Notes: generated by a model not told the origin, from the sequence alone. Positions 1 through 38,272 are shown, numbered from the stretch's first letter. The stretch is 58,522 nucleotides of DNA from Candidatus Levyibacteriota bacterium (GCA_029260965.1 JAJDCG010000002.1:1-58522), one strand, 5' to 3'. Numbers and translations: made by a program.

Positions 1-1020
<1,020 letters not shown>

Positions 1021-1289
1021 CTTTTTTTAAAATGTTTTTTAACAAATAGAAGAGGGAAAGGGGAAGACAGGAAACTTGTTTAGATAGTCCTTTGGACTAG
1101 AGAAACGAGGGAATTGTAACCACAGGCTGAGTGAATGGTGCCTGGTTAATTTCGCAATCCCGATAATTTTATCGGATTTCCGCTAGATTTGTCTTTTGAT
1201 GAATTTGGTTGGACACTTAGAAATTGACAAAACTATTCTCGCTCTTCCTACCACATCTTGGTTAATAAAAGTATATTCAATTAACAAAC

Positions 1290-1316
1290 AATCCCGCACC
1301 AGAGGCGGGATTTTTT
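1290..1316 (+). terminator. Intrinsic terminator downstream of 16S rRNA
   Basis: AATCCCGC-ACCAGAG-GCGGGATT hairpin running into a T tract. Confidence 0.8.
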
Positions 1317-1425
1317 GCGCCCAAAATTTATATTTCGTGCCTGATTTCATCATAAATTTACGCGGCAGCAAAAAATTGTGATGGTTTTCCTGTTTGAGAG
1401 TTGTCAAGTCAAGCATAGAGCATGA

Positions 1426-1463
1426 TGACAATTTTTGAAGACGATCGTCTCAAAAAATTGTCA
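1426..1463. repeat. Near-perfect 38-bp palindrome, copy 1 (REP-like)
   Basis: TGACAATTTTTGAAGAC-GATC-GTCTCAAAAAATTGTCA. Its reverse complement matches the element at 9922-9963 at all but one position of the shared core. Confidence 0.9.
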
Positions 1464-1575
1464 GAGTTTTTTGGTTGCAATGTTAGTTTCGGTAGTTTGA
1501 TAAGAGGTATTGGGTGCGTAGAGTAAAGAGAGATGTTTGCCCATGTTGCCTTGCCTGTGATAAAATTGAGATCAA

Positions 1576-1648
1576 GGCACGATGGTGAAGTGGTTAACAC
1601 AGCTGTTTGCAAAACAGCCATGCGCCGGTTCGAATCCGACTCGTGCCT
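1576..1648 (+). tRNA. tRNA-Cys(GCA)
   Basis: Acceptor stem GGCACGA/TCGTGCC, anticodon arm GCTGT-TTGCAAA-ACAGC, T-loop GTTCGAATC, U discriminator. CCA is not encoded. An extended -10 (TGA-TAAAAT) lies at 1558-1566. Confidence 0.96.
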
Positions 1649-1671
1649 CATTATAATTAACCAATTTATTT

Positions 1672-1833
1672 ATGGAGAACGAAAGTGGCAAAAGCGTAGT
1701 AGATTTAGATATAGGTTTTAGCGAGAGACAGGTTGATGTCAATACGGAAAAAGGAACAAAACCAAAATCTATTATTCTAAAAAAGAAAAAAACTACAACT
1801 GTTTTTCAAGCACAAAAACAGATAAAAAAATGA
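1672..1833 (+). CDS. Small hypothetical protein, 53 aa (MENESGKSVVDLDIGFSERQ...KQIKK), between the two tRNAs
   Basis: Uninterrupted ATG..TGA frame, below the size cut-off of the ORF track. It is preceded by the same AT-rich TTTATTT-ATG context as other genes here. Confidence 0.45.
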   Translation: MENESGKSVVDLDIGFSERQVDVNTEKGTKPKSIILKKKKTTTVFQAQKQIKK

Positions 1834-1847
1834 TATAATTGCCTTTT

Positions 1848-1920
1848 GGGTGCTTAGTTCAGTGGCTAGAACGCTTTCCTGATAAGAAAGAGGTCAATAG
1901 TTCGATTCTATTAGCACCCA
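1848..1920 (+). tRNA. tRNA-Ile(GAT)
   Basis: Acceptor stem GGGTGCT/AGCACCC, anticodon arm CTTTC-CTGATAA-GAAAG, T arm AATAG-TTCGATT-CTATT. CCA is not encoded. It has its own extended -10 (TGATATAAT) at 1831-1839. Confidence 0.96.
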
Positions 1921-1959
1921 CATTTATCAAAATACCTCAATAGCATCTGAAAAAAACTA

Positions 1960-3499: not shown

Positions 3500-5950
3500 A
3501 TGATTAATGAGAGAATCGGAAACGACACGCCATCAGAAGAACCCCGCGATGGTAAAGATCTAGGAAAATTGACTAGGAGAGATTTTTTAGGAAAAACTAG
3601 AATAATTTTAACAGGAGCAGCTGCAAACGTGCTGATACCACCTATTTTAAGAGATCCGCTTGTGGCAAGCGCTTCAGAAAAAACACCAGCTGGTCATCTA
3701 CCAGAAAAAGAGCATCATGAAACAACTGACCTCAATGATTGGAGTGCTAGGGTAGTAGTGGGTGGTTTTTTTGGAATTGTGGCGGGTATGATGATTAAAA
3801 AGGTTGAGTTGGGTCCCGGAACAGTAGGGACCATGACAACTCTTGAATCAGCAAGACTTATTGCTCTTAAGAGCTCAAAGAATAAAAGTGATCAGGAGGC
3901 TTTTGGCCATGATATGAAAGAATTAAAAGGCGCATATCCTCTTGTGCCTGTGCTTGTTGAAATCGCACATATTGCAAGCAATATACGGGTAGATGCAAAT
4001 AAAATTTTTGATGAGAGTAATCTTGCAGAGACTGAAAGTGGGTCAATAATGCCATCAGAAGATGCTGAGAAAAAGTCTTGGGAAGAGTTTTATCAAAAGA
4101 CTACCGAAGAGCTTGTTGATTTGATGGCTCAAAGTTCAGCTCTTTCTATGCTCGCACCAATTACAACTACTTATGTTTCTTCGTCTGTGACAAGCAGTAT
4201 GCATCCTGCTATTCTTGAAAAGCTCTACAGGCTTAAATATTCTGAAAATGTTTTGCGAGTTCAGGAGGAGCTAGCGGGGGATAGTCTTAAAGAGGGTGAT
4301 GTGCCACATGCAAATTATTTGAAATCCAAAGCACTGGAAGAGGCACAAAAGGTAATGGATGGAGTTGGTGGAGAGCTTGATCTGATGCTTACTGTCGCGG
4401 GAAATACAAATGGAGACGCAGTCCTCGGTGACCCGCCCAATATTTATTCTTTATTCAAAAAGCCTCAGCATTTCCCTGCTTATTCAGCGATTGGTTTTAC
4501 AACAAGTGAGATTTTGACAACTTGTGCAGCATTGGCATTTCTAAAAAAAGCAGGAGTTCGAGGAGAGACGAAAAAGTTTGTTAAAAGATTCAATGAAGGT
4601 CAAGTCAAAATAATTAAATCAATAAGTCAAACAATTAAAGATAGTAGATTGCGAGATGTATCATTATTTGGAGCAAGGGCCGAAGCGGGAAAACTGTTTA
4701 ACGACTTGCAAAATGTATTGAATGATGAAGGCTTAGAGAGTTTAGAGTCAGATTTAATAAATCAGATAGCATCTATTCCTTCTGGGGCGTTTCGCCTTGA
4801 TGTAAAAACAATCTTGTCTCATCAATGGGATGCGTTTGTGAGAAAAAAGCAAAAAACAAAAGATGATGAGTTAACTGGTGAGAGATTTGATTATGAGTTA
4901 TTCTCTGATCTTCTTCTTCGCAAAGGAAGTCTTCATGGGAAAGGAAGCAAAGACGATAATCAGTCAGAACGAGAGCATGACAGTATTTTAAGGAAAGAGC
5001 TGCTTGGTGCACTAGCGTCACAAGATAGAAAAAAAATTGCAAAATATATAAATAGGATGTTAGATTCTCGAAAAGCAACAACGCAATCAGACTTAGGTGC
5101 TCTTTTTAGTAAGATTATGCAGCAGGAAAATGAAAATGAATTAGTAGGCAAGGATGATTCAGAAATTAAGAACACTTTTCTTCAAGCAATTAAAGAAATG
5201 GCTGCTAACGGACTTTCTAAGAGTGGCCCTGATAAAGCAGAGCTAGAGAGGGCTTTCATGAATGATGATGTCGAGAAGCTTTGGAGTGGACTTTCTGAAA
5301 TTGAAAAAGAAGATGTCAGACAGGCACTAATGATTTCAACAGGTGAGCCGTCTCAACATGAAGAGCCTGGGGATGGTCACGGGCATTCGCAAAATAGAAT
5401 TCTGAGTCATCAGGCTAAAGAAGTACTTGTAGCACTTGATACACAAATCCCTGCAGTTCCTAGTCTTGTTCATTTCGTAAAGCATGATATTTTGCCTCTT
5501 ATTTCCGCAACAACTGACGATCCTGAAAAGAAAATAAAACGAGAACGTGACGCCATTCTATTGATGACCGATTTGATTTCTGCATTTGCTGATAATGTTG
5601 CAGCATATCTTTTTGCATTAGCCTCTTTGGAAGAGTTGTATAAGGAAAATTACGGAGAAGATGTTTTACAGAACAATAAATCACTTGATAGGGCAATTTC
5701 GCTTACTGCAATTTACTCTGCTGTTTTTGGAGGGAGCCTGTCGCTTCTTGGAAACGGTCCCAATTTCCTTCAGGAGAGGCCAGTAGGTGTGATTGATGAT
5801 CAAGGAGAGCTGAGGATTCATACAGAGCCAAGAGCCTTGCCTGACACTCTTAAAAATCCATACGGCTTTGTAGGCTCGGCATTGGTTTTTGGATTTGGAC
5901 GATCTTCAATTGATAATGCAGCTGAAGGACTAGAGCTAGCCTCAGTTTGA
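3500..5950 (+). CDS. Highly diverged ion-transporter (IT) superfamily-like protein (NhaD/ArsB/CitMHS-type motifs) with a large hydrophilic insertion and an N-terminal twin-arginine-like motif
   Basis: LGDPPN, ISAFADNVAAYLF and SAVFGGSLSLLGNGPNF occur in the order expected for IT-superfamily antiporters. TRRDFL lies near the N-terminus. Confidence 0.55.
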   Translation: MINERIGNDTPSEEPRDGKDLGKLTRRDFLGKTRIILTGAAANVLIPPILRDPLVASASEKTPAGHLPEKEHHETTDLNDWSARVVVGGFFGIVAGMMIKKVELGPGTVGTMTTLESARLIALKSSKNKSDQEAFGHDMKELKGAYPLVPVLVEIAHIASNIRVDANKIFDESNLAETESGSIMPSEDAEKKSWEEFYQKTTEELVDLMAQSSALSMLAPITTTYVSSSVTSSMHPAILEKLYRLKYSENVLRVQEELAGDSLKEGDVPHANYLKSKALEEAQKVMDGVGGELDLMLTVAGNTNGDAVLGDPPNIYSLFKKPQHFPAYSAIGFTTSEILTTCAALAFLKKAGVRGETKKFVKRFNEGQVKIIKSISQTIKDSRLRDVSLFGARAEAGKLFNDLQNVLNDEGLESLESDLINQIASIPSGAFRLDVKTILSHQWDAFVRKKQKTKDDELTGERFDYELFSDLLLRKGSLHGKGSKDDNQSEREHDSILRKELLGALASQDRKKIAKYINRMLDSRKATTQSDLGALFSKIMQQENENELVGKDDSEIKNTFLQAIKEMAANGLSKSGPDKAELERAFMNDDVEKLWSGLSEIEKEDVRQALMISTGEPSQHEEPGDGHGHSQNRILSHQAKEVLVALDTQIPAVPSLVHFVKHDILPLISATTDDPEKKIKRERDAILLMTDLISAFADNVAAYLFALASLEELYKENYGEDVLQNNKSLDRAISLTAIYSAVFGGSLSLLGNGPNFLQERPVGVIDDQGELRIHTEPRALPDTLKNPYGFVGSALVFGFGRSSIDNAAEGLELASV

Positions 5951-18341: not shown

Positions 18342-19523
18342 ATGTTGACTGGACTTATCTTTCTTCTAATATTATCAGTACTTGTTCTTATTCATGAGGC
18401 GGGGCATTTTTTTGTGGCCAAAAAATTAGGAATCAGGGTTGAGGAGTTTGGCTTTGGGCTACCACTGACAAAGGCTCTCTTTTCTGTTAAAAAGGGTGAG
18501 ACAACATATTCTTTCTATCCTGCGCTCATTGGTGGGTTTGTAAAAGTTTACGGTGAGGATGAGGCAGGAGCAGGACGGATAAAAATAAGCAATAAGCAAC
18601 AAGCAATAAGCAAAAAAGACGAGAAACGGGCGTTTTTTAGTCGCCCACTTTGGCAGAGATTTTCTGTAATTTTTGCAGGGGTTCTGATGAATACATTTCT
18701 TGCTGTTGTGATTTATTACGTATTTCTTGGTATCTCAGGGTTTAGAACAGAGCTCCCGCTTTTGGGGGATCATCAGTTTTTTGCAGTGAATCAGGAAAAC
18801 AAAGCAGACATTATTTTTCGTCAGGTGGTTGCTGGATCTCCAGCTGCAGATGCAGGGATTACTCCTTTTTCAAAGCTAATTTCTGTCAATGGTCAAGAGA
18901 TCTTAAGTGTTGATCAGTTTACAGAATTGATTGATTCAAACAAAGGAAGCGAGCTCACTATTGCATGGCAAAATACTGAGACAGGGAGAGAATTTAGTCA
19001 GGAGCTGACACCACGCATTGATCCACCAGAGGGAGAGGGCGCACTCGGAGTTGTCTTTTTCCCAATAAGCACAGCTGTGCTTGACTATACAGATCCTGTA
19101 GATAAAGTTTTTTCAGGTTTTACTCATCCAGCCAACTTGATGGTTTACAATTTCAAGATCATAGGGCAATTGATTGACATTTCGGTCAAAGAAGGTACGG
19201 CAGAGCCAATCAGCCAGGGTGTATCAGGTCCTATTGGTATTTACTCAGTTGTTGGTGAGGTTTTAAGCATTCCTGATATGAAGGAAAGAGTGTTGCAGGT
19301 TCTCAATCTAGCAGGATTGCTATCCATCTCACTTGCCTTTTTCAACGTTTTACCAATTCCAGGTCTTGATGGAGGACGGCTTTTCTTTTTAGGAGTTGAG
19401 GCAGTAACTAGAAAAAAGCTAAATCCCAAATTTGAAGCCTATGCCAATGCTATTGGTATGGCGGTGTTGATTGCTCTGATTGTTGTGGTAACATTTAAGG
19501 ATATCTTCCAGCTTTTTGGGTAA
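18342..19523 (+). CDS. rseP: Site-2 (M50) intramembrane zinc metalloprotease with PDZ domain
   Basis: IHEAGH, FGFG, a PDZ region (VVAGSPAADAGI), GVSGPIGI and NVLPIPGLDGG. Confidence 0.95.
   Translation: MLTGLIFLLILSVLVLIHEAGHFFVAKKLGIRVEEFGFGLPLTKALFSVKKGETTYSFYPALIGGFVKVYGEDEAGAGRIKISNKQQAISKKDEKRAFFSRPLWQRFSVIFAGVLMNTFLAVVIYYVFLGISGFRTELPLLGDHQFFAVNQENKADIIFRQVVAGSPAADAGITPFSKLISVNGQEILSVDQFTELIDSNKGSELTIAWQNTETGREFSQELTPRIDPPEGEGALGVVFFPISTAVLDYTDPVDKVFSGFTHPANLMVYNFKIIGQLIDISVKEGTAEPISQGVSGPIGIYSVVGEVLSIPDMKERVLQVLNLAGLLSISLAFFNVLPIPGLDGGRLFFLGVEAVTRKKLNPKFEAYANAIGMAVLIALIVVVTFKDIFQLFG
18584..18611 (+). repeat. In-frame heptamer repeat inside rseP
   Basis: AATAAGC AATAAGC AACAAGC AATAAGC, within the segment encoding ISNKQQAIS. 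Confidence 0.88.
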
Positions 19524-19524
19524 T

Positions 19525-20244
19525 ATGTCAGATGACTTCAACAAAGTTTTCCAACGTGGAGTTAGTATCATCAATGTTGCTGATCAAGCTCAAGGAATAG
19601 AATTGGCTTTTAAGATATTGTGTGAGAGGGTGGATAAAAAAACAGCACTTTTTCTCTCAGGCGGATCAACTCCCAAAGATCTTTATGAAAAAATAGCTCA
19701 AAAAAAGAGGATCATTCCTGGTGCGATTGCGCAAATTGATGAACGGTTCGGTCAGCCATATCACACAAACAGCAATCAGTTGATGATAAAAAATACAGGA
19801 CTTGAGAAGTATGCCAACATGTCTGGTGTACCAGCATACTGGATTCTTGATGACAGAAGTCGGGTAGAAACAGCAAAGGTTTATGATACCTTGGTGAGAA
19901 AGCTTTTTGGTATTTTCACCAAAAATATAGGTATATTCGGGATTGGTGAGGACGGACACACTGCTGGAATACCCTCCAGGAAAATCTCCAGTTTTAAATA
20001 TGACACAAACAAGCTGGTAACAGATTATGATGATAAGTCAGGCGGGTATGGAGAACGAGTCACCATGACTTTTGCAGCGCTTGAAAAGTTGGATTTATTA
20101 ATAATTTTGGTTTTTGGAAACTCTAAAAGACAGGCACTTTTACAAATGTTTGAGGATGGTTCTGAGATCGAAATCCCTGCAAGGTTTTATACACGAGCTG
20201 ATATTGCGAAAAAGACGCTTTTAATAACTGACCAAACAATATAA
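19525..20244 (+). CDS. pgl: 6-phosphogluconolactonase
   Basis: LSGGSTP, DER, GIGEDGHTAG, RVTMT and FGNSK. First gene of pgl-zwf-gnd. Confidence 0.85.
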   Translation: MSDDFNKVFQRGVSIINVADQAQGIELAFKILCERVDKKTALFLSGGSTPKDLYEKIAQKKRIIPGAIAQIDERFGQPYHTNSNQLMIKNTGLEKYANMSGVPAYWILDDRSRVETAKVYDTLVRKLFGIFTKNIGIFGIGEDGHTAGIPSRKISSFKYDTNKLVTDYDDKSGGYGERVTMTFAALEKLDLLIILVFGNSKRQALLQMFEDGSEIEIPARFYTRADIAKKTLLITDQTI

Positions 20245-20254
20245 AATAGATTTT

Positions 20255-21715
20255 ATGCATGAGAAGTCTCCGTTTGTAATTGTAATCTTCGGCGCTACAG
20301 GTGATTTGGCAAAAAGCAAATTAATCCCTGCACTTTTTTCACTCTATAAAAAACAACAACTCAGCAAAGATTTTCATATAGTTGGTTTTGCTCGACGAAA
20401 TTTTACAAATGAGGAGTATGCTCACACACTGGGGGAGGAGATGGAAACGCATGGGGATCCAGGGTGGGCAGATTTTTCAAAAAGGATTTCTTATCAGAAA
20501 GGGCTTTTTGAGGAAAAAGATGGATATGACGAGCTGACAAAAAGATTAAACAAAATAGATGAGGAGATGGGGGCGTGCATCACTCGTATTTATTATCTGG
20601 CAACACCACCAAATTATTATATTTCAATACTTGACCATCTGAAAAAAACAAAACTATCTGAGGGCTGTGCATCAAAAGTCGCCAAAAAAGATGGAAAGAA
20701 ATGGACAAGACTTGCGATCGAAAAACCATTTGGGCGGGATCTTGAGACAGCAAAAGAGCTTGACAAAAAACTTTCTGAGATTTTTGATGAGGAACAGATT
20801 TATAGAGTAGATCACTATCTTGGAAAAGAGACAGTTCAGAATATGATAGCCTTTAGATTCGCAAATAATATATTTGAGCCTATTTGGAGTAAAGATTACA
20901 TAGATCACATTCAGATTACTTTTGCAGAAGAAGAGGGAGTGCGGACAAGGGGTAAATTTTTTGATGGTGTCGGCATTCTACGTGATGTGGGGCAAAACCA
21001 CTTACTTCAGATACTGGCAACTGTTGCCATGGAGCAGCCGATGTCTTTTTCCAAAGAGGGAGTGAGAGATGCCAGAGCCAAAGCAATAAAAGCAATTCGT
21101 CCCATAAATCCCAGTGAAGTTTCAAAATACGTTGTCAGAGGTCAATATGAAGGATATCAACTAGAAAACGGTATTGTAGAAAATTCACGCACAGAAACAT
21201 TTACGGCGATGAAGCTTTTTGTTGATACGCCACGGTTTGAGGATGTGCCTTTTTACGTCAGGATTGGCAAAAAAATGCCAAAAGAGATGATGGAGATATC
21301 AATTGTTTTTAAACAAACCTGTCATTTGCTTTTCAAGGAATACGGCTGTCCTGAGATAGGAAATGTACTTACTATCAGAATCCAACCAGATGAGGGAATC
21401 AAGATGCGTTTTATTGCCAAAAATCCAGGCAGTAGAGTAGCACTTGGCGCGGTTGATATGAATTTTTCTTATCACCAGACATATGGAAATCACGGTTCTG
21501 ATGCCTATGAAAAGCTGTTGATGGACATACACGATGGAGATCAGATGCTTTTTAACAGATCAGATGAGCTCGAAAGCTCATGGGGGCTTATTACCAATAT
21601 CCTAAAAAATTGGGAAAAAGAAGGAGATGGACTGCATGTTTACGAAAAAGGAACATGGGGACCTGTTGAAGCGAGTGTTTTGATTGAAAAAGACAGTAGA
21701 AAATGGATACAATAA
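20255..21715 (+). CDS. zwf: Glucose-6-phosphate 1-dehydrogenase
   Basis: IFGATGDLA, IEKPFG, YRVDHYLGKE, RDVGQNH and IRIQPDEG. Confidence 0.98.
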   Translation: MHEKSPFVIVIFGATGDLAKSKLIPALFSLYKKQQLSKDFHIVGFARRNFTNEEYAHTLGEEMETHGDPGWADFSKRISYQKGLFEEKDGYDELTKRLNKIDEEMGACITRIYYLATPPNYYISILDHLKKTKLSEGCASKVAKKDGKKWTRLAIEKPFGRDLETAKELDKKLSEIFDEEQIYRVDHYLGKETVQNMIAFRFANNIFEPIWSKDYIDHIQITFAEEEGVRTRGKFFDGVGILRDVGQNHLLQILATVAMEQPMSFSKEGVRDARAKAIKAIRPINPSEVSKYVVRGQYEGYQLENGIVENSRTETFTAMKLFVDTPRFEDVPFYVRIGKKMPKEMMEISIVFKQTCHLLFKEYGCPEIGNVLTIRIQPDEGIKMRFIAKNPGSRVALGAVDMNFSYHQTYGNHGSDAYEKLLMDIHDGDQMLFNRSDELESSWGLITNILKNWEKEGDGLHVYEKGTWGPVEASVLIEKDSRKWIQ

Positions 21716-21719
21716 GTAT

Positions 21720-22646
21720 ATGAAGATTGCTGTACTGGGACTAGGGCGAATGGGCCGACTTATCGTTGACAAGCTTCTTGATGGAGGTCATTCTGTGGTT
21801 GCCTGGAATAGATCTTTAGATTCTCTGGAGAAGATAAGTCTGGAGAAGAAAGATCTTGTGGAAAAGGGTGTACTTCAAACAACACAAAATTTGGAAGACT
21901 TAAAAAAATTACTTGATTCACCCAGAATTGTTTGGTCTATGCTTCCATCTGGTGAAGTGACAGAGACTGTGCTTGATACAGTCTCAGGATTTTGGGAAAA
22001 GGGGGATATTCTAATCGATGGTGGGAATTCACACTTTAAAGATACAGAAAAACGTTCGAAGCAATTTGAGACAAAGGGAATAAAATTCATGGGTATTGGT
22101 GTATCAGGTGGAGTTCATGCCAAAAAAAACGGATGTTGCATTATGGTGGGTGGATCTAGAGAGACTTATGAATATTTGAGGCCAGTATTGGATACTCTTG
22201 CAAGCCCGCATGGAACACATACGTATTTTGGTCCAGGTGGAGCAGGCCATTTTGTAAAAATGGTTCATAATGGAATTGAATATGGAATGATGCAGGCGAT
22301 TGCGGAGGGTTTTGGAGTCTTAAAAAAGTCAGATTATGACGTTGATCTGAAAGAAGTTGCCAGGAATTATCAGAGGGGAAGCATTGTCTCAAGTTTTTTA
22401 ATAGATTGTGTGGAGAGTGCTTTTGAAAAGGATGGTAATCTATCAGATACGTCTGGGGTGATTGGTGCAAATGGTGAAGGGAAGTGGACAGTAGAAACTG
22501 CAAAAGAGCTGGGTGTTCCTGCACCTGTTATTGAAAATTCGTTAAAGTTCCGTGATGATTCAGCAACAGATCCACAGATAAAAGACAGTTTTACAGCAAA
22601 GGTAGTGCAAGCGATGAGGTTTGAATTTGGTGGCCACAAAAAGTAG
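21720..22646 (+). CDS. gnd: 6-phosphogluconate dehydrogenase (decarboxylating), short YqeC-type
   Basis: GLGRMG, IDGGNS, GVSGG and AGHFVKMVHNGIEYG. Confidence 0.95.
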   Translation: MKIAVLGLGRMGRLIVDKLLDGGHSVVAWNRSLDSLEKISLEKKDLVEKGVLQTTQNLEDLKKLLDSPRIVWSMLPSGEVTETVLDTVSGFWEKGDILIDGGNSHFKDTEKRSKQFETKGIKFMGIGVSGGVHAKKNGCCIMVGGSRETYEYLRPVLDTLASPHGTHTYFGPGGAGHFVKMVHNGIEYGMMQAIAEGFGVLKKSDYDVDLKEVARNYQRGSIVSSFLIDCVESAFEKDGNLSDTSGVIGANGEGKWTVETAKELGVPAPVIENSLKFRDDSATDPQIKDSFTAKVVQAMRFEFGGHKK

Positions 22647-23924
22647 TTATTTTATCAGTTTTTGTAGAGCTGTGAGATAGGATGCCTCTTTGAGACCGGT
22701 TTTATTTTTTGTAGAAACTTTCCAGGTGTTTTCAAAAGCTTTTTCCATGATGTCGGTAAGTCTTTTGAGAACATCTGCTTTTTTATATGTATCATTTTTG
22801 ATGTTTTGCTCCCACTCTAGATAGCTGGCAGCTACCCCACCTGAATTAGCAAGCACGTCAGGGACAATGGTAACACCTTTTTTCTCAAGAAATCTGTAAG
22901 CGTATGGTGTGATGGGATTGTTTGCCATTTCAATTATTATTTTTGCTTTTATGTGTTGCATATTGCTTTCATTTATAACTCCACCTAGTGCTGCAGGAAC
23001 CAGCACGTCAACAGGTAGTTCTAGTAGTGATTTGTTGCTGATCATCCTACCGCCTCTGGTGTCACAAACTCCTCCTGCGCAATAACAACCTGCTAGAGTT
23101 CCTTTTTCCTGTTTGCACTCAAAAACAAGTGGGATATCAAGCGGCAGTAATTCGCCATTTGTTTGTTTGATAACTCCTCCCTGGGAATCTGAAACAGCAA
23201 CAATTTGAAATCCTTTTTCTGATGCAAAGTTTGCAAAATTATACCCGACATTTCCAAATCCCATCACTGCAACAGTTATTTCTCGTGGTTTCATTTTGAG
23301 TTTTTCAGCGATTTTTCCCAGCACTACCGCGCCACCAAAACCCGTTGCGACATTACGGCCGTCAAGTCCGTGTTTGCCCTTGCCGGTAAATGTTGCATAT
23401 GCTTTGTGATCAACGTGTGTGGGATTGTGTTTTTTTGAGAGTCTGACGTATTCATCAGCCATCCAGTCCAGGATCTGGGGATTGGTGTTTACGTCAGGTG
23501 CGGGTATGTCTATGTCGTGTCCAAGTACATGATGGATCTTGCGGACATATTCACGTGCTAGTTCTTCCAATTGGATTGCTGTCAGAGATTTTGGATCTAC
23601 AACGACTCCACCTTTGCCACCGCCAAATTTGACTCCGATTAGAGCTGTTTTGAGAGACATCAGAAGGGAAAGGGTTATTACCTCATCCCGTGTTACTTCT
23701 GGGTGAAATCGAAGCCCTCCTTTGTATGGTCCAAGTGTATTGTCATGTTGAGCCCTATAACCTTTGAAATTTACGATTTCTTCATCAATTTTTATAGGTA
23801 GCGTTACTTCAATAACACGATCTGGTTGAAGAAATGTCTCTACCTTATCAAGGGGGAGGTTGTATTTGGCTGCTATTTCTACAATGTCTTGTTCGATTTT
23901 GTTATATGTGTTTTGATCTGCCAT
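22647..23924 (-). CDS. gdhA: Glu/Leu/Phe/Val dehydrogenase, glutamate dehydrogenase-like
   Basis: GPYKGGLRFH, GGGKGG, DIPAPDVNT, GFGNVG and PDVLANSGGV. Confidence 0.9.
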   Translation of the reverse strand: MADQNTYNKIEQDIVEIAAKYNLPLDKVETFLQPDRVIEVTLPIKIDEEIVNFKGYRAQHDNTLGPYKGGLRFHPEVTRDEVITLSLLMSLKTALIGVKFGGGKGGVVVDPKSLTAIQLEELAREYVRKIHHVLGHDIDIPAPDVNTNPQILDWMADEYVRLSKKHNPTHVDHKAYATFTGKGKHGLDGRNVATGFGGAVVLGKIAEKLKMKPREITVAVMGFGNVGYNFANFASEKGFQIVAVSDSQGGVIKQTNGELLPLDIPLVFECKQEKGTLAGCYCAGGVCDTRGGRMISNKSLLELPVDVLVPAALGGVINESNMQHIKAKIIIEMANNPITPYAYRFLEKKGVTIVPDVLANSGGVAASYLEWEQNIKNDTYKKADVLKRLTDIMEKAFENTWKVSTKNKTGLKEASYLTALQKLIK

Positions 23925-24156
23925 GGGTTTTTAATCCTTGAAATAGTATAGCATAGTACAATTAGCATTGAATAATGCAGATTCTCCAGATAATAAAATC
24001 CGTTGACCACCACGAAGTCGAACAGAAAAGTCGACGCCGCCTAAGTTCTTCTAACTAAAAGTGCCCCAAAATTACTTTGAAAGTCTTCAAATAAATTTGA
24101 ATATTAAATATTGTTGTAGTTATGAGAATGTACTATAATACATGACCATAACCACG

Positions 24157-26088
24157 ATGGCTATAGAATTTAATCGACTGCCTCAGGATGAAGAAAAAAC
24201 TGATGTGTTTAAACCGCGGGCAGTAGCTCCCGTAGAATTTACCACACCTCCTCTTGACAGCAGGAAGAGTTCGGTTCGTAAGCTTTCGCCTGAGGAGTTT
24301 GATGCAAGGAACAGAACTGTTTTAGAAAACTCTTTATTGCCAGGCAGAGTGGCATACTCCCTTACAGGAAGGAGAGATCCCGATCTCAAACAAGTTGGAT
24401 TTCTTGGATTAATCAAGGCTGCCGATAGATTTGATAAAACTCGAGGAGTCCCATTTGAAAACTATGCAGAACGACGCATAAGATGGGAAATCCTGGACTA
24501 CTTTAGAGAGAACAAGCCAGGAGGAGTTAAAGTTTCAAGAGTAGATCAGGAAAGGGTTCAAAAATTAGATGAAGAGGTCCATAGATTAGGAAGAGAGTTG
24601 ACAGTAAGTGAAGCTGCTGCACTTCTGAAGATTTCCAAAAAAAGAGTAAAGAAGGTACCACAGGCTCATGATGCTCGAAAACTTGTCTATTTAGACGGAT
24701 TTATAGAAGACGATGGTGATAGCTGTAATGGAAGTTTTGAGCTCGTAGATTCCAAACAAGACCCAGGAGCGGAAGTGGTAGATAGGATTGCGTTGAGCGA
24801 GGCATTGCGAACATTGGCTGAGGAAGAAAGAGATATACTAATGGCATTTTTTTACGAACATAAAAAGACATCTGAAATTGCTCTAGAGATAGGTAAAAGT
24901 GAGGCGCGCGTTTCTCAACTCAAAAAACAAGCGCTTAGTAAAATGAGGAAGAATTTAGAAAGGACAACAACCCCCTTATTTCCGAAGAGTACAGCATCTG
25001 AAGCTCTGAATGGGATTAAAAGCGGAGCGAGGCAAGCAGAAAATGTAAAAAAGAAAAAAGCTCTTAAGAGAGGGAAGAGGTTTGAAGAAGAATTGAGAGA
25101 AAAACTTAGCACAGACAGGAGAGCAGTAGTTCAGGCAATTCAGCAGCTGTCCCCGCGTGAGAACAGGGTATTAGTTATGTGGCTAGAGGGTAAAAGTTAT
25201 GCGGATATTGGAAAAGCATTGAGCATGCATCCTGGCAGCACTTCAATAATAGTAAAGAGAGCAATAGATTATCTGAAGAATGCAAATAATGTTAATGCGA
25301 TAGGGGAGCTTGGTAACAAAACTAGAAAAAAGAGAATATCTAGATCAAGATTGTCCGCAGAAGACAGGAAGGCTAAAGCTCGCGAATATCAAAAAAAGTT
25401 ATATAAGGAAAAAGAAATAGCAAAAATAGTTGAAGGTGAGGGAGAGCCAGCGACTGAAGGAATAATATTTTTGGATCGGTATGTTGCACAAGAAGCATCA
25501 ATAGCTGATCCCAAGGTTGATGTTGAAACTACAGTAGTAGACCGATTGGCATTGCGTAATGCGATAAAGATATTGCCTGATGATCAAAGAAGGGCAATAT
25601 TCCTAAAATTTTATGAAGGATTTACTCAAGCAGAAATTGGTAGGGAAATGGGGGTAGCGGAGGGGAGTGTCTCAAATATTCTTAAAAGAGCAATCAGTAA
25701 TATAGGTGTAATTTGGGATTTGGAACAGCAAGAACCAATGCAGGGTATTAAAAAATCAAAGAAAGAGTTTTCGCCCGAAGTAAGAGCCAAAGAGGCAGGA
25801 AGTAAAATTAAAGAGATAACCCCACCGCAAGCAACGGATAGAGGCTCCCAAGTAAAGGAAAAGCGAACAAGGTTTTTGGAAGAGATTAATTCTTGGGGGC
25901 AGGTTAATTCGGATGAAGAAAGAGCGGAATTGCTTAGGGGTTTGCTTGAGATGCCGGATTTGCCTTTGCCCTCTGATAAAATAAGAGTAGTTCGTAAATA
26001 TCTAAAAGAAGATAGGCCTCGTCTGGCTGAAAATATGTTGAAAGATTTTTTGAATGCGCCCATACGTAGTAAAAAGAATTTGACATAA
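24157..26088 (+). CDS. sigma70-family (group 3, FliA/SigB/F-like) sigma factor with two additional sigma4-like HTH domains
   Basis: Region 2 (GFLGLIKAADRFDKTRGVPFENYAERRIRWEILDYFRE), region 3 (RELTVSEAAALL), and three region-4 HTHs at aa ~218-270, ~329-378 and ~470-521 of the track ORF. ATG 24142 lies only 2 nt after TATAAT, so ATG 24157 is preferred. Confidence 0.85.
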   Translation: MAIEFNRLPQDEEKTDVFKPRAVAPVEFTTPPLDSRKSSVRKLSPEEFDARNRTVLENSLLPGRVAYSLTGRRDPDLKQVGFLGLIKAADRFDKTRGVPFENYAERRIRWEILDYFRENKPGGVKVSRVDQERVQKLDEEVHRLGRELTVSEAAALLKISKKRVKKVPQAHDARKLVYLDGFIEDDGDSCNGSFELVDSKQDPGAEVVDRIALSEALRTLAEEERDILMAFFYEHKKTSEIALEIGKSEARVSQLKKQALSKMRKNLERTTTPLFPKSTASEALNGIKSGARQAENVKKKKALKRGKRFEEELREKLSTDRRAVVQAIQQLSPRENRVLVMWLEGKSYADIGKALSMHPGSTSIIVKRAIDYLKNANNVNAIGELGNKTRKKRISRSRLSAEDRKAKAREYQKKLYKEKEIAKIVEGEGEPATEGIIFLDRYVAQEASIADPKVDVETTVVDRLALRNAIKILPDDQRRAIFLKFYEGFTQAEIGREMGVAEGSVSNILKRAISNIGVIWDLEQQEPMQGIKKSKKEFSPEVRAKEAGSKIKEITPPQATDRGSQVKEKRTRFLEEINSWGQVNSDEERAELLRGLLEMPDLPLPSDKIRVVRKYLKEDRPRLAENMLKDFLNAPIRSKKNLT

Positions 26089-26107
26089 AACCTTTTTGTG
26101 CTATTAT
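26080..26107 (+). promoter_or_regulatory. sigma70-type promoter of the T-box/proS transcript
   Basis: TTGACA-N16-TATTAT with a TG extension. The -35 box overlaps the last codons of the sigma gene. Confidence 0.7.
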
Positions 26108-26125
26108 AAATTATAAAGCGCCTGA

Positions 26126-26290
26126 GTTTGGTTCCCGCTAAACGAGCTGACTGCGATGAGCAGTACGGACAAAACCGTAAAATGTAATGAGTCCCGATGA
26201 ACAATCGGGAGAAACAAGGTGGTACCACGAGAAATCCTCGTCCTTGTCCCAAATCATTTATTTGATTGGGGATGAAGATGAGGTTTTTTT
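26126..26290 (+). ncRNA. T-box riboswitch (Pro-specific) with ultrashort Stem I
   Basis: T-box AAGG-TGGTACC-ACG (26216-26229). Antiterminator: ACGAG/CTCGT and AAGG/CCTT. Stem III: TCCCGAT/ATCGGGA. A competing 21-bp hairpin (26236-26283) is followed by T7. The mini stem GTTTGG-TTCCCG-CTAAAC carries CCC in its loop. Confidence 0.88.
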
Positions 26291-27997
26291 ATGAAATATT
26301 CACACCTTTTTGGAAAAACAATTAAAGATGTGCCAAAAGATACCAGTTTAACTTCACATAAATTGCTTTATCAAGCAGGATTTATAAGGGAAAGTACAGC
26401 AGGGCGATATTATTTCTTGCCTCTGGGACAAAGAGTTCAGCAGAAAATCATAAAAGTAGTCAAAGAAGAAATGGATCGCGCTGGAGCGCAGGAAATTGTG
26501 GCGCCAATTCTTCATCCGCTTCATTTGTGGCAGGAAACCAACCGTGATAAGGCCGACTTTGGCCTTTTGAAAATAAAGGATAGACGAGAGATGGAATTTG
26601 TTCTTGGCGGGACGGCTGAGGAAATGCTGGTTGATTTGGTGCGTAAGTTTCAAACTAGTTACAAAGACTTGCCTTTTCAACTTTATCAATTTGCATCCAA
26701 ATTCCGAGACGAGCTTCGTGCTCGGGGCGGACTCTTGAGGGTCCGTGAATTTATCATGAAGGATGGATATTCATTTCATGCCTCAGAGAATGATTTCAAG
26801 AAAGAATATAAAAAAATGTCAAAAACTTACACAAAAATATTTGAGCGAGTCGGACTTGAGACGTTCATGGTTGCTGCTGACAACGGCGATATAGGTGGGG
26901 AATATGCCCATGAATTTCAGGTAAAGTCAGGTGCAGGAGAAGATACCATTTTTTATGTTCCATCGAAAAAGCTTTATTTTAATAAGGAAATCGCACCAAC
27001 TATGGCAGCTCCGTTTGACCAGAAAGGCGAGGAGCCAAGACCAATGGAGGATGTTGTTGGAAAAGGAATTATCGGTGTTGAGGCATTAGCAAAATTCTTA
27101 AATATTCCAGTTGAGGCAACAACCAAAACACTTCTTTTTGAAACCGAAAAAGGTGATATTGTCGCAGCAGCAGTAAGAGGGGAATATGATATTGACGAAA
27201 CCAAGCTAAAAAGAGTAATTGGTTGTCAGAGCATTACGTTAATTACGCCTGAGAAGATTAAGGAGCTGACTGGAGCAGAGGTCGGATATGCAGGAATTCT
27301 TAATCTGCCAAAGCATGTAAAAATATTCATGGATGACTCGATGAAAGGAAGAGTAAATTTTGAGATGGGGTCAAATAAAACAGACATACATGTGATTAAT
27401 GTAAATTTTGGACGGGATTTAGAAATGCCTGAAAGATTTTATGATTTCAAAGAAACACGAGCAGGAGATTTTTATCCTGAGACAAAGGAAGCATATGAAA
27501 CTTTTCGTGGAATTGAAGTAGGAAATATTTTTCAGCTTGGTTATCACTATTCAAAAAAAATGAAGGGTGCTACTTTTATCGATGAAGAGGGTAATGAAAA
27601 GCCCTACTATATGGGTTGTTATGGAATAGGAATTGGGCGGACGCTGGCTGCGGTGGTTGAGATAAATCATGATGATAGGGGAATAATATGGCCTGATTCA
27701 ATTGCGCCGTATCAGGTGCATCTGATAGGAATTACGAATAATGAATCAAAAATTAGGCAAGAAGCAGATGAAATTTATGAGAAATTGCAGGATGCGGGAA
27801 TTGAAGTTTTATACGACGATCGGGAAGATGCATCAATTGGCAACAAATTTGCTGATGCTGATCTGATTGGAATCCCTGTGCGTTTGGTTGTCAGTAAAAA
27901 AACTGGGGACAAAATAGAGTGGAAAAAAAGAACAGAGAAGGAATCAGAATTGTTGAATTTTGACGAAGTGCTGGGAAGAATAAAGAAGCAAGGTTAA
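26291..27997 (+). CDS. proS: Proline--tRNA ligase (bacterial type with editing insertion)
   Basis: FRDELRARGGLLRVREFIMKD, GIEVGNIFQLG, MGCYGIG and an anticodon-binding domain (KFADADLIGIP). Confidence 0.98.
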   Translation: MKYSHLFGKTIKDVPKDTSLTSHKLLYQAGFIRESTAGRYYFLPLGQRVQQKIIKVVKEEMDRAGAQEIVAPILHPLHLWQETNRDKADFGLLKIKDRREMEFVLGGTAEEMLVDLVRKFQTSYKDLPFQLYQFASKFRDELRARGGLLRVREFIMKDGYSFHASENDFKKEYKKMSKTYTKIFERVGLETFMVAADNGDIGGEYAHEFQVKSGAGEDTIFYVPSKKLYFNKEIAPTMAAPFDQKGEEPRPMEDVVGKGIIGVEALAKFLNIPVEATTKTLLFETEKGDIVAAAVRGEYDIDETKLKRVIGCQSITLITPEKIKELTGAEVGYAGILNLPKHVKIFMDDSMKGRVNFEMGSNKTDIHVINVNFGRDLEMPERFYDFKETRAGDFYPETKEAYETFRGIEVGNIFQLGYHYSKKMKGATFIDEEGNEKPYYMGCYGIGIGRTLAAVVEINHDDRGIIWPDSIAPYQVHLIGITNNESKIRQEADEIYEKLQDAGIEVLYDDREDASIGNKFADADLIGIPVRLVVSKKTGDKIEWKKRTEKESELLNFDEVLGRIKKQG

Positions 27998-36859: not shown

Positions 36860-38272
36860 ATGCTTAGACTCTACAACTCACTCACGAAAAAAGTAGAAGA
36901 ATTTAAACCGATAGATGAAAAAAAGGTCGGAATTTATACCTGTGGGCCAACTGTTTACCTTTTCCAACATATTGGTAATTTTCGTTCATTTGCAACAGCA
37001 GATTTTTTGATCCGCGCACTCCGTGCGAATGGACTGAAAACAAGATTTGTGATGAACATCACAGATGTTGGTCATATGACTGATGATCAGGTAGGTGGCG
37101 GAGACATGGGTGAGGACAAGATAGAAAAAGCAGCTGCCAGAGAGGGAAAATCAGTGTGGGAGGTGGCGAAATTTTACACAGATACATTTCTCAAAGATTA
37201 CGAACTTCTTAATCTAACCCCTGCCGATAAATTATGCAAAGCTACAGATCATATCAGAGAGCAGATTGACCTCATAAAGCAAATTGAAGAAAAAGGTTTT
37301 ACATATCAGATAAATGATGGGATTTATTTTGATACCTCAAAGCTTAAAAACTATGGTCAGCTTTCATCACTTGATGAAATCAAAGAAGGTGCTAGGGTTG
37401 AAAAAAATGATGAGAAGAAAAATCCACGTGATTTCGCGCTTTGGAAGTTTTCTCCAGTAGGTGAGCGTCGTCAAATGGAGTGGAAAAGTCCGTGGGGAGT
37501 AGGATTTCCAGGGTGGCATATCGAGTGTTCGGCTATGAGCATGAAGTATCTGGGAATTTCTTTCGATATTCATACAGGAGGCGTAGACCACAAGGAGATT
37601 CACCATCCAAATGAGATCGCGCAGTCAAAAGCTGTAACAGGCAAAAACCTTGCCAATTTTTGGATTCATACAGCATTTATGCAGGTTGCTGGCGACAAAA
37701 TGAGTAAAAGTCTGGGAAATACATATACTCTTTATGATCTGGAGAAAGAGGGTTACGAGCCACTCGCTCTTCGCTATTTGTACTTACAAACTCACTACAG
37801 ACAGGAGATGAATTTTACCTATGCTGCACTTGATGGAGCACAAAATGCACTTAGGAGGTTATGGAATGATGTATCGCGCTGGGAGGATCCGTCGGCAAGC
37901 TCAGGGCAGGTTCAGAAAGATTTTGATGAATATGAAAAGGCTTTTTTTGAAGCTGTTAATGATGATCTTAACATGTCTAAAGCATTGGCAGTGATGTGGG
38001 TGCTTGTAAAATCAGATAATCCAACAGGTGCCAAATCCCGTCTGCTTTTCAAGATGGACGAGGTGCTAGGTCTGGATATAGAGAAGAAAAGTGCGGAGTT
38101 AAAAAAACAGGCAGGTCTAGTGCCAGACCACATCAGGGAAATGCTTGAAGAGAGAGAATCGTTGAGAAAAGACAAAAGATATAATCTCGCAGATCAAATG
38201 AGGCGCAAAATTGAAAAATTGGGATATGTAGTGGAGGATACAAAAAAGGGAGCCAAAGCGAGAAAGAAGTGA
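36860..38272 (+). CDS. cysS: Cysteine--tRNA ligase
   Basis: CGPTVY, HIGN, DFALWK, GWHIECSAM and KMSKS. Confidence 0.98.
   Translation: MLRLYNSLTKKVEEFKPIDEKKVGIYTCGPTVYLFQHIGNFRSFATADFLIRALRANGLKTRFVMNITDVGHMTDDQVGGGDMGEDKIEKAAAREGKSVWEVAKFYTDTFLKDYELLNLTPADKLCKATDHIREQIDLIKQIEEKGFTYQINDGIYFDTSKLKNYGQLSSLDEIKEGARVEKNDEKKNPRDFALWKFSPVGERRQMEWKSPWGVGFPGWHIECSAMSMKYLGISFDIHTGGVDHKEIHHPNEIAQSKAVTGKNLANFWIHTAFMQVAGDKMSKSLGNTYTLYDLEKEGYEPLALRYLYLQTHYRQEMNFTYAALDGAQNALRRLWNDVSRWEDPSASSGQVQKDFDEYEKAFFEAVNDDLNMSKALAVMWVLVKSDNPTGAKSRLLFKMDEVLGLDIEKKSAELKKQAGLVPDHIREMLEERESLRKDKRYNLADQMRRKIEKLGYVVEDTKKGAKARKK

Follow-up and report, generated by a model that had tools for sequence, protein, structure and literature searches.

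The locus analysed here raises the question of whether the short leader in front of proS in a bacterium of the candidate phyla radiation (CPR) is a complete T-box riboswitch whose Stem I has shrunk to a small hairpin, and, if so, which tRNA it senses and at what level it acts. The leader lies on a 58,522-nt stretch of Candidatus Levyibacteriota bacterium DNA (GCA_029260965.1 JAJDCG010000002.1:1-58522; the whole of this stretch is referred to as the window), and a sequence-only reading made earlier had proposed for it an ultrashort-Stem-I T-box, neither isoleucine-specific nor actinobacterial, with a proline codon in its apical loop. It is quite probable, in our judgement, that positions 26114-26290 (+ strand, ~180 bases 5' of proS) are a tRNA-Pro-sensing T-box riboswitch of miniaturised architecture that controls this gene. 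The gene itself (26291-27997, + strand) encodes a bacterial-type prolyl-tRNA synthetase (ProRS) of 568 aa with class II core, editing and anticodon-binding domains (Pfam tRNA-synt_2b, tRNA_edit and HGTP_anticodon); its homologues carry the source name proline--tRNA ligase, and the nearest relatives are labelled Levyibacteriota, Roizmanbacteria, Microgenomates or Patescibacteria.

All elements of the leader described below lie on the + strand. A sigma-70-type promoter was recognised at 26080-26107 (TTGACA at 26080-26085, a 16-nt spacer and TGc-TATTAT at 26099-26107), matching 11 of the 12 consensus positions and including the extended -10 TG. No other site on this strand resembled a promoter so strongly, and its position would place the presumed transcription start site (TSS) at about 26114; the proS ATG is at 26291. 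Because the -10 element ends (26107) 6 nt ahead of a conserved 5' AAAGCG, there is no space for a long Stem I. The leader opens instead with an ultrashort Stem I of 30 nt (26118-26147), supported by Rfam T-box alignment, covariation and RNAalifold. Its base region (26118-26125 / 26144-26147) consists of a helix of GC 26118-26119 with GC 26146-26147 and of kink-turn (K-turn)-like strands, UGA 26123-26125 and GA 26144-26145; the Rfam alignment sets GC..UGA / GA..GC on the base of the model's Stem I and deletes 82 distal positions. Above it stands a 6-bp mini-hairpin (26126-26143; GUUUGG 26126-26131, CUAAAC 26138-26143) with the apical loop UUCCCG (26132-26137), in which CCC (26134-26136) is the putative specifier and G 26137 the purine 3' of it, so that a codon plus purine matching the amino acid of the regulated gene, as is characteristic of T-boxes, precedes proS. 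A pairing of GCGCC 26118-26122 with the T-box bulge, which RNAfold predicted for the whole leader, was dropped as not conserved. The upstream open reading frame (ORF; 24142-26088, + strand) encodes a 648-aa sigma-70-like protein with one region 2 match and three separate region 4 matches (Pfam); the stop codon of this ORF and the promoter's -35 box overlap.

Stem I is followed by a miniature Stem II (26150-26164, 15 nt; ACUGC/GCAGU, 5 bp, pentaloop GAUGA) without S-turn and by the Stem IIA hairpin (26165-26178; ACGG-ACAAAA-CCGU), which falls on the model element CGg..cCGUUA in the Rfam alignment and ends in an F-box-like CCGUAA reaching 26180. An extension of Stem II into Stem IIA, produced by RNAalifold, was not conserved and was dropped. 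A putative Stem IIB pseudoknot of 3 bp (ACA 26169-26171 with UGU 26183-26185) was read by eye. Stem III (26192-26210; UCCCGAU-GAACA-AUCGGGA), with UGAG before it and GAAAC after it, leads to the antiterminator, or discriminator, at 26214-26247 (core AAGG-UGGUACC-ACGAG-AAAUC-CUCGU-CCUU, 26216-26245), which comprises helix A1 (26214-26219/26242-26247), the bulge UGGUACC (26220-26226) and helix A2 (26227-26231/26237-26241); the 7-nt bulge opens with UGGN, as in T-boxes generally. By itself this structure is weak (-10 kcal/mol). Its competitor, an intrinsic terminator and Shine-Dalgarno (SD) sequestrator at 26236-26290, is a hairpin (26236-26283) followed by U7 (26284-26290), and its 3' arm ends in GAGG (26280-26283), 7 nt 5' of the ATG. 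The hairpin had been proposed as a 21-bp helix excluding the antiterminator; it has 19 pairs and two 1x1 mismatches (-26.8 kcal/mol, z = -5.5, equalled in none of 200 shuffles), and mutual exclusivity holds since both structures use 26236-26247. The helix that competes for the 3' strand of the antiterminator is thus the more stable one (-26.8 vs -10 kcal/mol); a weak antiterminator facing a strong competing hairpin is the usual energy arrangement in T-boxes. The whole leader folds far better than its shuffles (z = -6.0). All T-box domains therefore appear to be present in the window, with Stem I and Stem II both shrunk to small hairpins, and the distance from the presumed TSS to the end of the antiterminator is ~135 nt. 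The promoter, mini-hairpin, Stem III, antiterminator, GAGG, U7 and ATG were found exactly where the sequence-only reading had put them, whereas the K-turn-like base helix, the 5-bp Stem II as well as the Stem IIA/B element had been absent from it.

Four T-box classes have been described (PMC10482949), of which Class III, found at actinobacterial ileS, has a short Stem I, carries the specifier in an apical loop of five or six nucleotides and acts on translation (PMC7583486, PMC10482949, PMC10651847). The window leader shares with it a short Stem I that lacks the distal platform of interdigitated T-loops and the apical hexaloop housing the specifier; the long Stem II with S-turn is missing.

Relatives were sought at 42 proS loci in Patescibacteria/Microgenomates-type metagenome-assembled genomes, one genome being scanned per species. 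Directly 5' of proS, a similar leader was found in one of the 42 homologues alone (L012). A covariance model made from the window only, with a structure drawn by hand (R1), was then run on whole loci and recovered five more leaders, each before the gene preceding proS; additional ProRS homologues yielded a further five, giving 11 relatives with R1 scores of 36-117 bits. ProRS is 44-85% identical across the genomes of the 12 leaders. The leader stands before proS alone in the window, L143 and L012, before proB-proA-proC(-ProX)-proS in L145 and L147, before proC-proS in L149, before ornithine cyclodeaminase (Pfam) and proS in L030, L004 and L144, and before a gene without Pfam match and proS in L001 and L003, while in L007 a nucleotidyltransferase/HEPN-like pair is inserted between leader and proS. 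All 12 leaders, then, precede proS or proline-synthesis operons, in agreement with the specifier. No such element was found at proS of the close relatives L005, L002, L148 and L146, which indicates that it is gained or lost readily. A metagenome scan for the pattern GCTGA-N5-GANGAG-N45-75-GGTGGNACCRCG returned 100 stretches, nearly all of them GC-rich coding sequence; the T-boxes among them were just three (L056, L068 and L073), all with a long Stem I.

In the model-fitted alignment of the 12 leaders, 96.3% of pair cells are standard and 25 of the 35 pairs show compensatory changes, values reached by none of 500 shuffles, and slid structures pair at no more than 43%. A structure-blind MAFFT alignment (5' domain, eight leaders) gave 94.1% pairing compared with at most 42% in slid controls, and RNAalifold, unaided, predicted the specifier hairpin and Stem II. 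Stem I pairs covary in both alignments, with U-A to C-G exchanges in a mini-stem that is mostly GUYUGG/CCARAC; since this sequence is so largely conserved, the covariation is modest. The best covarying helix is Stem II, in which all five pairs are compensatory in the 12 leaders and three of five in the MAFFT-only alignment; its variants include CGUGC/GCACG, AUUGC/GCAAU and CGUAC/GUACG, its loops are GAUGA, GAAGA, GAUAA or GCUAA, and a longer form with internal-loop purines occurs in L001, L147 and L003 only. Across the 12 leaders the Stem IIA helix is 97.5% paired, seven of seven Stem III pairs are compensatory where alignable, four of the five A2 pairs covary, and UGGU of the T-box bulge is invariant. 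A Stem IIB partner matched to the loop could be read by eye 1-8 nt past Stem IIA in 11 of the 12, statistically not strong, with a complementarity that shifts with the loop (ACA/UGU, CUUAA/UUAAG, GGA/UCC, GUU/AAC, CCU/AGG); as it amounts to just 3 bp, this pairing is suggestive rather than proven. A promoter resembling TTGACA/TA(T/C)AAT ends 5-16 nt 5' of AAAGCG in 10 of the 11 relatives, the remaining one (L004) having a -10 hexamer, TATACT, and no clear -35. With a promoter thus placed right next to the element in the window and these 10 relatives, a far-upstream TSS serving a conventional Stem I, which the sequence-only reading had named as a finding that would count against it, is unlikely.

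Some members depart from the window in their architecture. The G-A K-turn signature is absent from seven relatives, and in five leaders, all of them without this signature, an extra hairpin separates the specifier hairpin from the 3' strand of the Stem I base (L147 145-170, L004 1725-1770, L003 2172-2196, L149 2472-2497 and L007 2145-2158). Three of the extra-hairpin loops are alike (GGCAAGCUCUGG, GGCAAACUCAGG and UCGAUUAGCUCAGG), and in L004 the specifier hairpin is preceded on its 5' side by yet another one. An enlarged Stem III region in L001 (2100-2160) and L144 (2290-2325) holds an inner hairpin, GCACACC..GGUGUGU followed by U7, that resembles a terminator within the leader, 5' of the T-box sequence.

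Specificity for proline is most directly addressed by the apical loops, which read UUCCCG, UAUCCCG, UUUCCCG (two leaders), UUCCCAG, CUUCCUA (three), UUUCCUG, CAUCCUA (two) and AUUCCUA. The window has a hexaloop; in ten relatives an additional nucleotide on the 5' side makes a heptaloop of it, and the loop of L030, UUCCCAG, is likewise a heptaloop. All 12 leaders have an unvarying CC, then C or U in the third position and then a purine, in a loop whose neighbouring positions differ from leader to leader; this is the pattern that would be expected of a proline specifier. Covariation of the mini-stem and conservation of a CCN loop codon had been named in advance as the checks to be made on orthologous leaders. 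Both were seen in the 11 relatives and, together with the CC(C/U)-purine rule across the 12 leaders, bear out the proposal of a proline-specific ultrashort-Stem-I T-box outside the actinobacteria. UCC is likewise invariant in these loops; a serine reading was dropped, given that a pyrimidine follows UCC, that the genes are proS or proline genes and that UGGU mismatches G73 of tRNA-Ser. Bacterial tRNA-Pro has A73, which is compatible with UGGU, and tRNA-Ser has G73.

The same loops are compatible with more than one tRNA-Pro. That the element is a functional proline T-box with a ligand other than tRNA-Pro(GGG), for example a single UGG isoacceptor accepted through a non-Watson-Crick third pair, is a serious possibility, although one we place well below an even chance. 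The third codon position is not fixed, being U in seven of the 12 members and arguably A in L030, whose loop is readable as CCA-G, and CCC makes up 17% of proline codons in the window ORFs. Bacillus subtilis is not known to have any tRNA-Pro but tRNA-Pro(UGG), which we counted in favour of such a ligand. The proline T-boxes of Bacillus use CCU (PMC13198045). Specifier and anticodon are described, however, as being joined by three Watson-Crick pairs (PMC7583486). Specifiers with a final C fit G34; CCC would pair perfectly with GGG, and CCU would pair with it by G-U wobble.

If the leader is a tRNA-Pro-sensing T-box, transcription would start at ~26114, right at the base of Stem I, and in the hexaloop UU-CCC-G the tRNA anticodon would meet a proline codon with the customary purine 3' of it. 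Stem II with its GAUGA loop, together with Stem IIA/B, would brace the codon-anticodon helix, much as Stem II does in short-Stem-I ileS T-boxes, and its purine-rich pentaloop is, speculatively, a candidate source of affinity where elbow platform and S-turn are both missing. The discriminator (Stem III and the UGGU antiterminator) would pair with the ACCA end of uncharged tRNA-Pro, by which the weak antiterminator (-10 kcal/mol) would be stabilised. When tRNA-Pro is charged, the hairpin 26236-26283 (~-27 kcal/mol) would form and U7 would terminate transcription just before the ATG, and the same hairpin would hide the GAGG SD in any full-length transcript.

The balance between these two outputs can be judged from the family. 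Each of the 12 leaders closes with a hairpin, of -18 to -37.5 kcal/mol, that draws on the antiterminator's 3' strand and leads into U6-8. In eight of them, that of the window among these, the start codon stands right at the U tract, with GAGG, GAGA or GGG just before; in L143, L144, L004 and L001 it lies 15-34 nt past the U tract, in L001 with a GGAGG of its own. In these four the hairpin can act only as a terminator, because the start codon lies outside it, and transcription termination would be the shared output, given a terminator with U6-8 in every leader and a distant start codon in four. Transcription attenuation would accordingly appear to be the common mechanism of the family, with SD masking as a putative extra layer where the gene abuts the terminator. 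Of the combined transcriptional and translational output envisaged by the sequence-only reading, the first part would thus extend to the whole family, while the second is possible in the window and is not common to all members. A purely translational T-box of the actinobacterial ileS kind, in which the hairpin would only sequester the SD and the U tract would be an SD-ATG spacer, is an unlikely alternative: the position of GAGG in the 3' arm, 7 nt before the ATG, the eight start codons that abut the U tract behind GAGG, GAGA or GGG, and the fact that the described short-Stem-I T-boxes are all translational (PMC7583486) would fit it, but a stable GC-containing hairpin with U6-8 is kept in all 12 leaders and four of the start codons are beyond its reach. 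In the window, GAGG does lie inside the hairpin, but that hairpin is also a canonical terminator with U7, and GAGG at its 3' end is forced in any case by complementarity to the conserved antiterminator CCUCG.

It is very improbable that the leader is merely a decayed T-box, a constitutive attenuator or plain structure of the 5' untranslated region that lost tRNA sensing along with Stem I, as might be supposed from its score under the Rfam threshold, its dispensability at proS of L005, L002, L148 and L146 and the lack of both tRNA-binding aids of other T-boxes, since 12 leaders from genomes with 44-85% identical ProRS keep all helices by compensatory changes, CC plus purine in the loop and UGGU in the bulge are invariant, which is unexpected for a relic, and a constitutive terminator before an essential synthetase gene would do harm.

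The putative tRNA-Pro-sensing T-box was absent from a default Rfam scan of the window at gathering thresholds. In a sensitive scan of 25950-26350, the T-box model RF00230 aligned end to end to 26114-26248 with 50.2 bits (E=3.2e-10). The sequence-only reading had expected a standard model to see the 3' half only; the alignment spans the whole element with the distal Stem I deleted, and the part of that expectation which survives is that the match misses the gathering score of 93 bits, because 14 nt stand in for 82 positions of the model's Stem I. The 11 relatives all stayed below this score as well, whereas a canonical control (L073) passed it with 109.9 bits. Rfam 15 holds no separate actinobacterial T-box model. 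When the window was searched with R1 with filters off, the sole further match was weak (37542-37661, 14.6 bits) and was rejected as a false positive, lying inside a class I aminoacyl-tRNA synthetase ORF. That a conserved, miniaturised family of tRNA-Pro T-boxes is missed by standard annotation appears largely to hold on this comparative evidence.

Several observations weigh against this interpretation, beginning with the score of the window element below the Rfam gathering threshold. The model-fitted alignment leans towards the structure of the model, and the L144 discriminator is misplaced in it; the family is similar in sequence, and in the MAFFT alignment two Stem I pairs are changed on both sides. 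No tRNA-Pro gene, from which anticodon and position 73 could be read, was found in the window or in 50 loci. Short-Stem-I T-boxes are held to need the S-turn of Stem II, and T-boxes acting on transcription are held generally to depend on an elbow-binding long Stem I to capture tRNA fast (PMC7583486, PMC10651847). The window leader has neither S-turn nor elbow-binding distal Stem I, contrary to these published requirements. Finally, the TSS, tRNA binding and switching, as well as the role of Stem II and the dominant output, are deduced from sequence and comparison.

The closest known kind of T-box is Class III ileS of Nocardia farcinica and Mycobacterium tuberculosis (Sherwood 2015 via PMC7583486, PMC10482949, PMC10651847). 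The two share a short Stem I without elbow-binding double T-loop, a K-turn at the base, a 6-bp stem (in the window) and an apical loop of the form NN-codon-purine, with the specifier starting ~16 nt from the first nucleotide of the base helix; Stem II and IIA/B (the IIB pairing being putative in the window) come straight after, Stem III and the UGGN discriminator have their usual form, and the alternative hairpin holds the SD. They differ in amino acid (Pro rather than Ile) and in host (a Microgenomates-type CPR bacterium rather than an actinobacterium), in Stem II (5 bp with a GAUGA pentaloop in the window, a long helix with S-turn in Class III) and in the length of the decoding domain (~73 nt in the window vs 99 nt). 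The terminator with U7 is canonical here, unlike in Class III, and is detached from the start codon in four relatives; the loop is of 7 nt in most relatives, and the G-A K-turn signature is absent from seven. In TBDB, the search for short-Stem-I T-boxes covered Actinobacteria and truncated Rfam hits only (PMC7778990), and in a literature coverage that was incomplete no paper was found tying T-boxes to CPR, Patescibacteria or Microgenomates.

With regard to the amino acid, the nearest counterparts are Class I T-boxes of Firmicutes. Bacillus proBA and proI are preceded by proline T-boxes with a CCU specifier and a long Stem I (PMC13198045, citing Brill 2011). The family described here resembles those of Bacillus subtilis and B. 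methanolicus (proBA, proI) in its CCU/CCC-type specifier, in its probable transcription termination and in the control of proline synthesis genes (proB, proA and pyrroline-5-carboxylate reductase), and differs from them in having no distal Stem I and in regulating proS alongside biosynthetic genes.

A possible origin is suggested by L073, a low-GC metagenome contig in which a canonical long-Stem-I T-box (5102-5306) stands before genes for a GNAT acetyltransferase and a 671-aa protein resembling alanyl-tRNA synthetase. This T-box is nearly identical to the proline family in Stem II (C-GAUGA-G), Stem IIA (CCGGACUAAACCGUAAAA), the linker UAAUGAG and the discriminator, and scores 51.6 bits with R1. 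It differs in its Stem I, which is full-length, carries the distal motifs AGAGA and GGUGAAA and has GCA-G in an internal specifier loop, in line with its Rfam score given above. The mini Stem II is hence not peculiar to the short-Stem-I family, and since L073 has it in common with the proline family, linker included, the latter probably goes back to a canonical T-box that lost its distal Stem I.

The genes around the element show some variation of their own. The nucleotidyltransferase-like and HEPN-like ORFs of L007 (2330-3000, recognised by eye from translations) lie between terminator and proS and have their own promoter-like sequence, so that the insertion apparently uncouples proS from the riboswitch; a GUG abuts the U tract and opens no long ORF. 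The first gene after the T-box in L001 (~2250-2900) and L003 (~2374-2990) has no Pfam match and shows the same break in both: a 33-36-codon ORF runs from the expected ATG, after which a long, startless ORF, opening with (I)F(L/Q)CDTAR, continues in the +1 frame. Either a conserved programmed +1 frameshift or an unusual start could explain this pattern.

The conserved proS neighbourhood of the clade (L143-L150, window 19516-22646) includes 6-phosphogluconolactonase-like, glucose-6-phosphate dehydrogenase and 6-phosphogluconate dehydrogenase (6PGD)-like genes upstream and HIT, S21, YbeY and DnaX genes downstream. The proline-pathway insert just 5' of proS differs among members, being proBAC, a ProX-like editing domain that stands free, ornithine cyclodeaminase, or an aminotransferase with an aldehyde dehydrogenase. 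Between the 6PGD-like gene and proS, the window has the sigma-70-like gene and a minus-strand ORF (22647-23924), and L143 and L148 have a small gene only. At the 5' end of the window (1-1921), a 16S rRNA gene of which the 3' two-thirds are present is followed by tRNA-Cys(GCA) at 1576-1649, in a spacer where an Ala tRNA is usual, and tRNA-Ile(GAU) at 1848-1921. No 23S rRNA was found in the 58.5-kb window at Rfam thresholds, from which the rRNA genes appear to be unlinked.

T-boxes serve as the model system of RNA-RNA recognition. Taken as it stands, the tRNA-Pro family would extend a short-Stem-I form of T-box known from actinobacterial ileS only to proline, to CPR bacteria, to intrinsic terminators and to a Stem II of 15 nt, in organisms thought poor in regulatory capacity. 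A bolder version, to which we give something close to but below an even chance, is that this is the smallest complete natural T-box seen so far (~135 nt), that it terminates transcription co-transcriptionally without elbow platform or S-turn, that a GAWRA pentaloop replaces the S-turn clamp and that one hairpin both terminates transcription and masks the SD. If that were true, the current rule, by which a T-box acting on transcription needs a long Stem I to capture tRNA quickly, would not be general. The family raises the testable question of the minimum T-box that can bind tRNA fast enough for a transcriptional decision. The element may also serve as a compact scaffold for structural work and engineered tRNA sensors. 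Because Rfam annotation that relies on thresholds overlooks an entire class of T-boxes, these are probably more widespread in uncultured bacteria than is now recognised. The element would, in several relatives, couple proS to proline synthesis genes, which makes it informative on amino-acid metabolism in reduced genomes.

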